Virus record (IMG/VR): IMGVR_UViG_3300031994_000081
Coordinates: 7,932 to 71,931 of that record
From: a virus
Taxonomy: Duplodnaviria; Caudoviricetes
Length of the DNA stretch: 64,000 nt
Reading direction: 5' to 3' (one strand)
Part shown: positions 57,601 through 57,740 of the stretch, piece by piece
How positions within the stretch are numbered: the stretch's first letter is position 1
Layout of the letters: each line of letters opens with the position of its first letter
Made by a program: the position numbers and the translations under genes
Notes under the pieces: model-generated
Database searches by the model: none
Told to the model about the DNA's origin: nothing
What the model saw: only the letters and a program-made list of their open reading frames with translations

Positions 57601-57740
57601 AAAGCAAAGGGAATTAGTGACAGAGTACGGTTTGTTTACCAAATCTAGGACTCGAACCTAGGACTTAAAGAACCAAAATCTTTCATACTAACCACTGTAT
57701 TAATTCGGTGAAGTAACTCTATCGAGACACCACTTTGCTT
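57601..57740 (-). ncRNA. tRNA-Gln(TTG)-like body (57637-57709) enclosed by the shared module; candidate Y-like RNA
   Basis: The cloverleaf has acceptor stem ACCGAAT/ATTTGGT. The flanks pair: AAGCAAA/TTTGCTT and GATAGAGT(T)AC/GTACTCTGTC. Confidence 0.75.

Follow-up and report, generated by a model that had tools for sequence, protein, structure and literature searches.

What is made from a tRNA gene whose leader and trailer can pair with each other: an ordinary tRNA, or an RNA in which the tRNA is held for some other purpose? The question is raised by a locus of a gut phage, in the viral record IMGVR_UViG_3300031994_000081 (Duplodnaviria; Caudoviricetes), of which a stretch of 64,000 nt (positions 7,932 to 71,931 of that record) was analyzed; this whole stretch is called the window below. 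An earlier note, made from the letters of this DNA alone, had pointed to a tRNA-Gln(UUG) enclosed by two strands, X upstream and Y downstream, and had proposed that the ensemble is related to the Y RNAs, the RNA partners of the protein Ro60 (Rsr in bacteria). Following up this proposal, we find that the segment from 57602 to 57740 (minus strand; about 140 nt) is best explained as encoding one RNA, composed of a complete tRNA-Gln(UUG) and of a leader and a trailer paired in a conserved frame of two helices. A tRNA enclosed in this manner will be referred to as clamped.

A complete tRNA-Gln between paired flanks

The body of the clamped tRNA was called by both ARAGORN and the Rfam tRNA model RF00005 (63.2 bits; cut-off 29), in agreement with the intact cloverleaf of the earlier note. 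Its D, anticodon and T arms are of standard form, and the anticodon loop (UUUUGGU) is 7 nt long and contains U33. All seven pairs of the acceptor stem form (ACCGAAU/AUUUGGU) and are followed by an unpaired discriminator base, A73. No CCA is encoded, as is also the case for several ordinary tRNAs of this phage, and the 3' trailer base-pairs with the leader. A separate, free tRNA-Gln(UUG) gene was likewise found where it had been predicted; it scores 63.7 bits, encodes its CCA and is 64% identical to the clamped copy. Its presence supports the view that the clamped copy is redundant for decoding in this phage.

The leader (57710-57740; 31 nt) reads AAGCAAAG-UGGUG-UCUCGAU-AGAGUUACUUC and constitutes strand X, with a 7-nt spacer between GUGGUG and AGAGUUACUUC. 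The trailer (57602-57636; 35 nt), which constitutes strand Y, reads AACAAACC-GUACUCUGUC-ACUAA-UUCCC-UUUGCUU and is followed by a run of U residues. The predicted pairing of the two ends extends over 8 bp (AAGCAAAG with CUUUGCUU; helix P1). Proceeding inward, P1 is followed by a bulged U, two G-C pairs, an internal loop of 6/7 nt and helix P2, in which GAUAGAGU(U)AC pairs with GUACUCUGUC over 8-10 bp. The flanks thus pair into a frame as the earlier note had it, but the acceptor stem does not run directly into a bulged helix: an asymmetric internal loop, made of UUC on the 5' side and of A73 and AACAAACC on the 3' side, lies between the two. The comparative model comprising frame and cloverleaf has a free energy of -33.2 kcal/mol versus -35.2 kcal/mol for the unconstrained minimum free energy (MFE) structure, which contains the same frame helices, and the fold z-score of the clamped RNA is -2.45. 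A scan for promoters and terminators, made with a σ70 consensus that may not be the host's, returned nothing convincing for this RNA; the U-run at 57594-57601 might form its 3' end, although the scan did not flag it as a terminator.

The strand X pattern, written as GTGGTG-N5-9-AGRGTTACTTCA, has exactly four matches in the window (54204, 54344, 57709 and 58042) and none in 100 shuffled sequences. Since none was expected, the frame is not a product of chance. The four copies surround the Ro60/Rsr gene; two belong to hairpins (order Y-loop-X) inside tRNA bodies, and two to X...Y arrangements around a cargo (Table 1).

Conservation and covariation of the frame

Related loci were gathered in three ways: by scanning viral contigs with the X pattern, by searching with the Ro60 protein, and by means of the pattern GTTACTTC-N46-62-T-loop, which calls for a normal-order tRNA right after the conserved core and is independent of Ro60. 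This yielded at least 134 clamped tRNAs, at least 73 of them distinct in sequence, at no fewer than 87 phage loci, with the 5' end of the tRNA lying within a few bases of GUUACUUC. In nearly all of them the leader is made up of the closing stem, a GURGUR motif, a helix and the core, and the trailer of the helix, a UUYCYC motif and the closing stem.

Forty diverse members of the X-tRNA-Y family, with the window RNA as the first, were aligned with MAFFT. The sequence UUACUUC is invariant in all 40. The consensus fold computed by RNAalifold comprises P1, P2, the GG/CC pairs between them and the three arms of the tRNA; 24 of its 25 pairs show compensatory changes. When the 11 leader-trailer pairs were scored over all members, 85.2% of the cells were paired, a level reached by none of 500 shuffles (62.5%); the covariation score was 0.72, compared to 0.29 in shuffled alignments and to 0.32 at most when the partners were slid by 1-3 columns. 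Because both pairing and covariation exceed these controls, the flanks can be said to be conserved as a structure, a point on which the earlier note had made its reading depend. Variation is seen in P2, which appears in other copies as AGAG/CUCU, AGGG/CCCU, ACAG/CUGU or AGAC/GUCU, and in the contacts between the X and Y motifs, where X3-Y4 alternates between G-C and A-U (15 GC, 18 AU) and X1-Y5 does likewise. The motifs also vary in matched fashion, GUAGUG occurring with UUCUC and UUGGUG with UUCCA.

The same clamped RNA is found at a locus (L031) whose Ro60 is 90% identical to that of the window. The tRNA bodies are 96% identical and their acceptor stems differ by compensatory changes, C2-G71 to U2-A71 and G4-U69 to A4-U69. 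L031 aside, the tRNAs most similar to the clamped one of the window are themselves clamped, in related phages, and have other specificities (His, 75% identity; Lys, 70-72%; Arg, 67-70%); no free tRNA-Gln gene exceeds 66%. At a further locus (L032; Ro60 74% identical), the same closing stem (GCAAAG/CUUUGC) and both strands, X and Y, recur in positions 4110-4190 (plus strand), which correspond in location to the clamp of the window and closely precede the transfer-messenger RNA (tmRNA) gene. There, a 25-nt unstructured loop replaces the tRNA-Gln, making L032 a natural "empty frame" control for the clamp of the window.

A second clamp lineage, represented by L043:7431-7560 and by six further loci, has the order X-tRNA-hairpin-Y and lies about 40 nt past the Ro60 stop codon. 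Copies of its tRNA that are otherwise nearly identical are either Lys(UUU) or Arg(UCU); the tRNA carries a C2·A71 mismatch, and ACUUC is its acceptor strand. The trailer hairpin of this lineage is conserved. Two other loci have a frame matching this one, down to its AGAC/GUCU signature, with only 34 nt inside. In the first two locus sets, the distinct frames comprised 43 hairpin inserts, 24 frames free of cargo, 16 with a permuted tRNA-like cargo and 8 with a normal-order tRNA. Altogether, these arrangements point to the frame as a unit of its own and to the tRNA as its cargo.

Clamped tRNAs also occur in tandem (Tyr GUA, then Lys UUU). This was seen at four loci and some 30 similar ones, where Ro60 is distantly related (about 26% identity) and lies 280-450 nt away; some copies have the single-base anticodon variants Asn GUU and Glu UUC, and one locus (L181) has an 8-nt loop. 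Unusual anticodons were noted in clamped tRNAs at L134:1590-1757 and L122:3237-3402, namely UCA (opal-suppressor type, reported by ARAGORN as selenocysteine) and AUC (A34). Separately, eleven loci have a conserved tRNA-like gene, beginning with GGCACATTAGCTCAGTGG, 1-4 kb upstream of Ro60. It has 20-25 additional nt past the anticodon region and is given seven different anticodons by ARAGORN; it is either mis-parsed or a further class of odd tRNA.

Linkage to the Ro60 gene

The Ro60 protein of the window shows a TROVE match of 68.9 bits and a weak vWA_Ro60 match, and aligns with the solved Ro60 of a Thermus phage (PDB 9L5Y/9KOP) at E 1.2e-14. Its gene lies on the same strand as the clamp, 1.7 kb away. 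Association of the two elements was assessed with the clamp pattern that makes no use of Ro60: among the matches listed, a Ro60 homologue was present within the fetched piece at 43 of 76 clamp loci as opposed to 2 of 42 pattern false positives. Five clamp records with no Ro60 in the fetched piece were tested, and all five have a TROVE match elsewhere in the record. All Ro60 genes listed share the strand of their clamp and lie 0.04-2.4 kb, mostly 0.3-1.2 kb, from it. The motifs of the frame are kept even in phages whose Ro60 is only 22-29% identical to that of the window. When cellular or host relatives were sought through Ro60 in genome contigs, only four metagenome-bin contigs were obtained, which are phage-like DNA. 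These data indicate that the flanks form a conserved, covarying two-strand module linked to the Ro60/Rsr gene, in support of the interpretation of the earlier note. They also make it rather probable, as judged from the sequences, that the frame is a site for Ro60.

Relationship to YrlA and other Ro60-associated RNAs

Mimicry of tRNA by bacterial Y RNAs was shown in 2014 (Chen et al. 2014, PMC4201824; structure preprint 10.1101/312249). YrlA of Mycobacterium smegmatis is a substrate of RNase P and of CCA addition, and both halves generated by RNase P remain bound to Ro60; the motif contacted by Ro60 in bacteria is GNCGAAN0-1G (PMC4201824). The clamp resembles YrlA in several respects. Both are encoded near Ro60 on the same strand, have ends that pair in a stem with an internal loop and a conserved motif in the 5' strand, and carry a cargo with a tRNA elbow; moreover, sister frames in related phages are recognized by the YrlA model (E about 1e-6). 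However, the tRNA-like domain of YrlA is permuted, joined at the position of the anticodon stem and devoid of an anticodon loop, whereas the clamp holds, through the acceptor ends, a complete tRNA in normal order that has a real anticodon (UUG). The claim that the layout is distinct from that of YrlA, where the module sits at the anticodon position, is therefore borne out, the module holding the ends of the tRNA in the present case. Calling the clamp a circularly permuted copy of the module is fair relative to the hairpin (Y-loop-X) copies; X...Y is in fact the canonical order in YrlA.

The link between the two architectures is provided by those related phages in which the same X and Y strands enclose a T arm, a closed acceptor hairpin and a D arm, that is, the YrlA layout. 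Permuted-cargo frames from three loci match the Rfam YrlA model RF02553 with 42.1, 39.1, 38.1 and 32 bits (E 1e-6 to 1e-3); all scores are below the cut-off of 69, and two matches are full length. In the alignment, P2 falls on the basal stem of YrlA, and the core (there GAUACUUC) on an unpaired AUGCU stretch beside or overlapping the GNCGAAN0-1G motif. Hence the invariant GUUACUUC sits at an unpaired position equivalent to the Ro60-contact motif of YrlA. In the animal RNAs, the Ro60-contact motif in the 5' strand is GGUCCGA. Direct identity of the window RNA with the Rfam families YrlA or Y_RNA was considered and discarded, no match being obtained with a short stretch at E≤10. As far as sequence comparison can tell, the frame is best read as a divergent Ro60-binding stem of the YrlA type with a different conserved motif, GUUACUUC accompanied by GURGUR/UUYCYC in place of GNCGAAN0-1G.

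A phage Ro60 has been shown experimentally to bind neighboring Y-like RNAs, Yrl1 and Yrl2, as well as host polynucleotide phosphorylase (PNPase), in the Thermus phage phiLo (PMC12135203; PDB 9L5Y, 9KOP). The present locus is similar in that a phage Ro60, matching that of phiLo, has Y-like RNAs next door. In contrast, a CGAA motif is present in the Yrl RNAs, which have the form of stem-bulge-stem hairpins and contain no tRNA; no tRNA-bearing partner was reported (PMC12135203). The papers searched deal with Y RNAs whose tRNA-like domain is permuted and with simple, hairpin-shaped Y-like RNAs of phages; none of them describes a whole tRNA within a Y-RNA frame. Topology, cargo and conserved motif are what is new in the clamp with respect to known Y RNAs and to YrlA.

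Properties of clamped tRNAs across the family

Family members differ from ordinary tRNAs in several ways. With acceptor pairs counted from the T-arm anchor, only 14 of 64 clamped tRNAs (22%) have 7/7 pairs, compared to 525 of 585 ordinary tRNAs in the same loci (90%). In 23 of the 64, the invariant core supplies position 1 with its last C, which is nearly always mismatched with A72 or U72; in about 12 clamped tRNAs, ACUUC itself serves as the 5' strand of the acceptor, forming some five pairs. CCA is encoded in 5/64 clamped versus 115/585 ordinary tRNAs. Trailer hairpins are preserved through compensatory change (GGGGAAACCC versus GCCUUCGGGC). The anticodons (Lys UUU, 15; Tyr GUA, 14; Gln UUG, 11; Pro UGG, 5; and others) are exchanged between near-identical bodies, as UUU/UCU, UUU/UUC, GUA/GUU, GUG/GCU and UGG/UUG. 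The anticodon differs in 21 of 63 clamp pairs that are at least 85% identical outside of it, a figure that stands beside no clean baseline from ordinary tRNAs, as the corresponding control was confounded by one odd tRNA-like cluster in which ARAGORN places the anticodon inconsistently. Acceptor defects, rarity of CCA, trailer hairpins and anticodon swaps may all be taken as family-level signs of a role other than decoding. The closeness of the window's tRNA to clamped tRNAs of other specificities also speaks against a purely ordinary tRNA.

Other features of the window

Immediately upstream of the clamp lies a second X...Y frame, and two further module copies are found on the far side of the Ro60 gene (Table 1). 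A tmRNA gene occupies 57098-57448 and is separated from the clamped tRNA by about 150 nt with two good hairpins (57449-57601, minus strand). Since the tmRNA begins only about 10 nt after the frame in L031 and L032, this spacer is an insertion specific to the phage of the window. Directly 3' of the tmRNA, positions 57042-57100 (minus strand) give a weak match to a hepatitis delta virus (HDV)-like ribozyme (RF02682; 28.9 bits, below the cut-off of 44). This could be a ribozyme forming a 3' end; HDV-like 3'-end ribozymes have been reported adjoining tRNAs in gut phages. Group I introns were detected above the Rfam cut-off at 27847-28064 and 40820-41032 (minus strand; 75.9 and 69.8 bits). Partial tRNA matches at 60954-61004 and 63894-63951 (minus strand), covering model positions 8-63 with 24-26 bits, are below the cut-off and may represent interrupted or rearranged tRNA-like genes.

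Neighboring open reading frames were checked for RNA-repair functions, and only a glucosaminidase and an HNH endonuclease were recognizable. Neither a CCA-adding enzyme, nor RtcB, nor a splicing endonuclease (tRNA_int_endo) was found in the record, which is 72 kb long and about 71% complete. A search of phage GenBank entries with positions 57000-59000 returned generic tRNA matches only.

Table 1. Positions of the clamped RNA, its component parts and related elements in the window.
Feature	Position	Strand	Evidence
P1, 5' strand (AAGCAAAG); last G shared with first base of GUGGUG	57733-57740	-	Pairs with 57602-57609 in MFE and comparative model; columns covary (40 members)
X motif GUGGUG; G1 and G3G4 pair with Cs of UUCCC, U2 bulged	57728-57733	-	Four-match pattern; covariation
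P2, 5' strand (GAUAGAGU)	57716-57723	-	Pairs with 57619-57626
Invariant core GUUACUUC, mostly unpaired; ends 1 nt before tRNA position 1	57710-57717	-	Invariant alignment columns
tRNA-Gln(UUG), clamped	57637-57709	-	ARAGORN; RF00005, 63.2 bits; acceptor count
3' spacer AACAAACC, from discriminator to frame; no CCA	57629-57636	-	Read from sequence
P2, 3' strand (GUACUCUGUC)	57619-57628	-	Pairing model; covariation
Y motif UUCCC	57609-57613	-	Y search match CUCU-N7-AUUCCC; covaries with GUGGUG
P1, 3' strand (CUUUGCUU), then U-run 57594-57601	57602-57609	-	MFE and comparative model
Free tRNA-Gln(UUG) with CCA	58521-58594	-	ARAGORN; Rfam tRNA
Second X...Y frame, about 170 nt of non-tRNA RNA inside, directly upstream of clamp	57850-58076	-	X at 58042-58065; 12-bp terminal stem; Y strand UUACC variant
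Ro60/Rsr gene, 483 aa; TROVE and Ro60-type vWA with DxSxS motif	54560-56011	-	Domain and structure-sequence matches
tRNA-shaped RNA with hairpin-order module (Y-loop-X) in anticodon-stem region	54299-54424	-	Rfam tRNA match spanning 126 nt; X at 54344-54367, Y at matching upstream site
tRNA-Tyr(GUA) with hairpin-order module in D-loop	54145-54282	-	ARAGORN; X and Y searches

Discussion

The conserved frame and its tie to Ro60 suggest a scheme for how the RNA might work. The phage's own Ro60 would dock on the frame, probably by contacting GUUACUUC. The tRNA would then be held by its acceptor end, leaving the elbow and the anticodon loop exposed, the latter pointing away from the protein. By analogy with YrlA of M. 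smegmatis, RNase P might nick the RNA at tRNA position 1; the frame would then keep the two pieces together by base pairing, with the 3' end buried and the tRNA, in consequence, uncharged. The tRNA part could act as a bait or as an adaptor, its partner being a factor specific for the tRNA body or the anticodon loop (for example a nuclease, or an enzyme of repair or modification). Going by the sequence data, the chances seem evenly divided as to whether the window RNA is a Y-RNA-type partner of Ro60 with a real tRNA as cargo, displaying its anticodon loop. Whether its main function is that of a Ro60-bound unit, as opposed to that of a tRNA precursor, likewise strikes us as a matter that could go either way. 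The Y-like RNA of new architecture put forward in the earlier note thus stands in part, as regards a conserved, Ro60-linked frame and a layout differing from that of YrlA.

A number of observations weigh against this scheme. The window clamp gives no match to RF02553 at E≤10, even on a 511-nt stretch, although this is expected because the topology has changed, and it lacks the canonical motif GNCGAAN0-1G. The window copy belongs to the minority with a flawless 7-bp acceptor, its anticodon loop is identical to that of the free tRNA-Gln, and the UUC just upstream is unpaired; the perfect acceptor and the 3-nt unpaired leader make cleavage by RNase P plausible. No feature discernible in the sequence blocks maturation of this copy to a working tRNA, and preservation of its acceptor stem through compensatory change relative to L031 fits a working tRNA and a displayed one alike. 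In the family at large, a free tRNA of matching anticodon was present in the fetched locus for just 13 of 134 clamped tRNAs, a lower bound as the loci are partial; many clamped tRNAs may be the phage's only copy, which suggests decoding. Finally, the spectrum of clamped anticodons resembles ordinary phage tRNA sets as much as it does known nuclease targets, and so is not specific to nucleases.

These points bring to the fore the possibility that the RNA is a Ro60-linked pro-tRNA, the frame being a cassette for maturation, storage or protection and the product an ordinary, charged tRNA-Gln. Ro60, with PNPase or other 3' exonucleases, would help strip the trailer, RNase P would remove the leader and the host's CCA-adding enzyme would complete the end. 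Owing to the perfect acceptor stem of the window copy, which is complemented by a discriminator and a canonical anticodon loop, this is a serious rival, yet in our estimate a distinctly less probable one. It is consistent with the compensatory changes in the acceptor, with the absence of a free twin for most clamped tRNAs in the fetched arrays, and with the fact that Ro60 and exonucleases assist 3' maturation and degradation of structured RNA in Deinococcus radiodurans (summarized in PMC4201824 and PMC12135203). Like ordinary phage tRNAs, moreover, the clamped tRNA has a high-scoring body (63 bits), resides in a cluster with tRNAs and tmRNA, and shares the lack of an encoded CCA with several neighbors. 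Ordinary precursors, however, have no conserved, covarying leader-trailer helix that is common to non-tRNA RNAs and tied to one protein gene. Acceptor ends are defective in most family members, and the invariant core often lies inside the acceptor stem, so that frame and tRNA could not be cut apart without the loss of one of them. In addition, there are frames without a tRNA and frames inside tRNA bodies, where they could not be trimmed, and the phage of the window already has a free, CCA-encoding tRNA-Gln(UUG).

Other explanations appear less probable still. The frame could be a generic processing stem, a double-strand cleavage signal of RNase III type or an analogue of the archaeal bulge-helix-bulge (BHB) that frees the cargo and is unrelated to docking of Ro60. 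RNase III-type stems flank rRNAs and occur in T7 transcripts; the archaeal BHB consists of two 3-nt bulges separated by a 4-bp helix, requires a splicing endonuclease and is also found inside tRNAs. As in those cases, the flanks of a structured RNA pair with each other, and the element occurs around varied cargos as well as in hairpin form at several positions of tRNAs, much as BHB introns do. Yet the single-stranded motifs differ, and the geometry (a 1-nt bulge, a 6/7-nt internal loop and 8-bp helices) is not that of a BHB; as neither an RtcB ligase nor a splicing endonuclease was found either, in a record that is 71% complete, we rejected an intron-type reading of the clamp. A mere cleavage signal is also hard to reconcile with the invariance of GUUACUUC and of GURGUR/UUYCYC across phages with such divergent Ro60 proteins, with the strict same-strand co-occurrence with Ro60, and with the positional match to the YrlA stem, and we regard it as unlikely. 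More unlikely still is that a tRNA gene landed by recombination in the loop of a small Y-like hairpin, creating a functionless chimera. Such an accident would agree with L032, where the same frame occupies the same site with no tRNA, but no fewer than 73 distinct RNAs, from many lineages of phages and with covarying frames, have this junction, in which the core ends within about one base of tRNA position 1, and the arrangement is kept in L031 with compensatory changes.

Within the reading that we favor, that of a Ro60-bound RNA displaying a tRNA, one specific version would have the clamped tRNAs act as exchangeable, whole-tRNA baits: host anticodon nucleases or tRNA-targeting toxins would hit the bait, or Ro60, together with PNPase or repair enzymes, would sense the cut and deal with it. 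We hold this version to be doubtful, though a little less so than a generic processing stem. If it were true, the anticodon swaps (UUU/UCU, UUU/UUC and GUA/GUU; Gln/His/Lys/Arg in the group to which the phage of the window belongs) would track the specificities of host nucleases.

What the tRNA-like part of bacterial Y RNAs does is a question that this family could help answer. In these phages the mimic appears to be replaced by a real tRNA, anticodon included, on the same Ro60-linked frame. The natural series of mounting points (D-loop, anticodon stem, permuted, empty) offers handles on which features of the tRNA are needed by the Ro60 particle. It also bears on whether the cargo is nicked, charged or attacked, and on the part that phage Ro60 may play in the tRNA-centered conflict between phages and host defense. 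More generally, some of the "tRNA genes" annotated in phages may be other than ordinary tRNAs.

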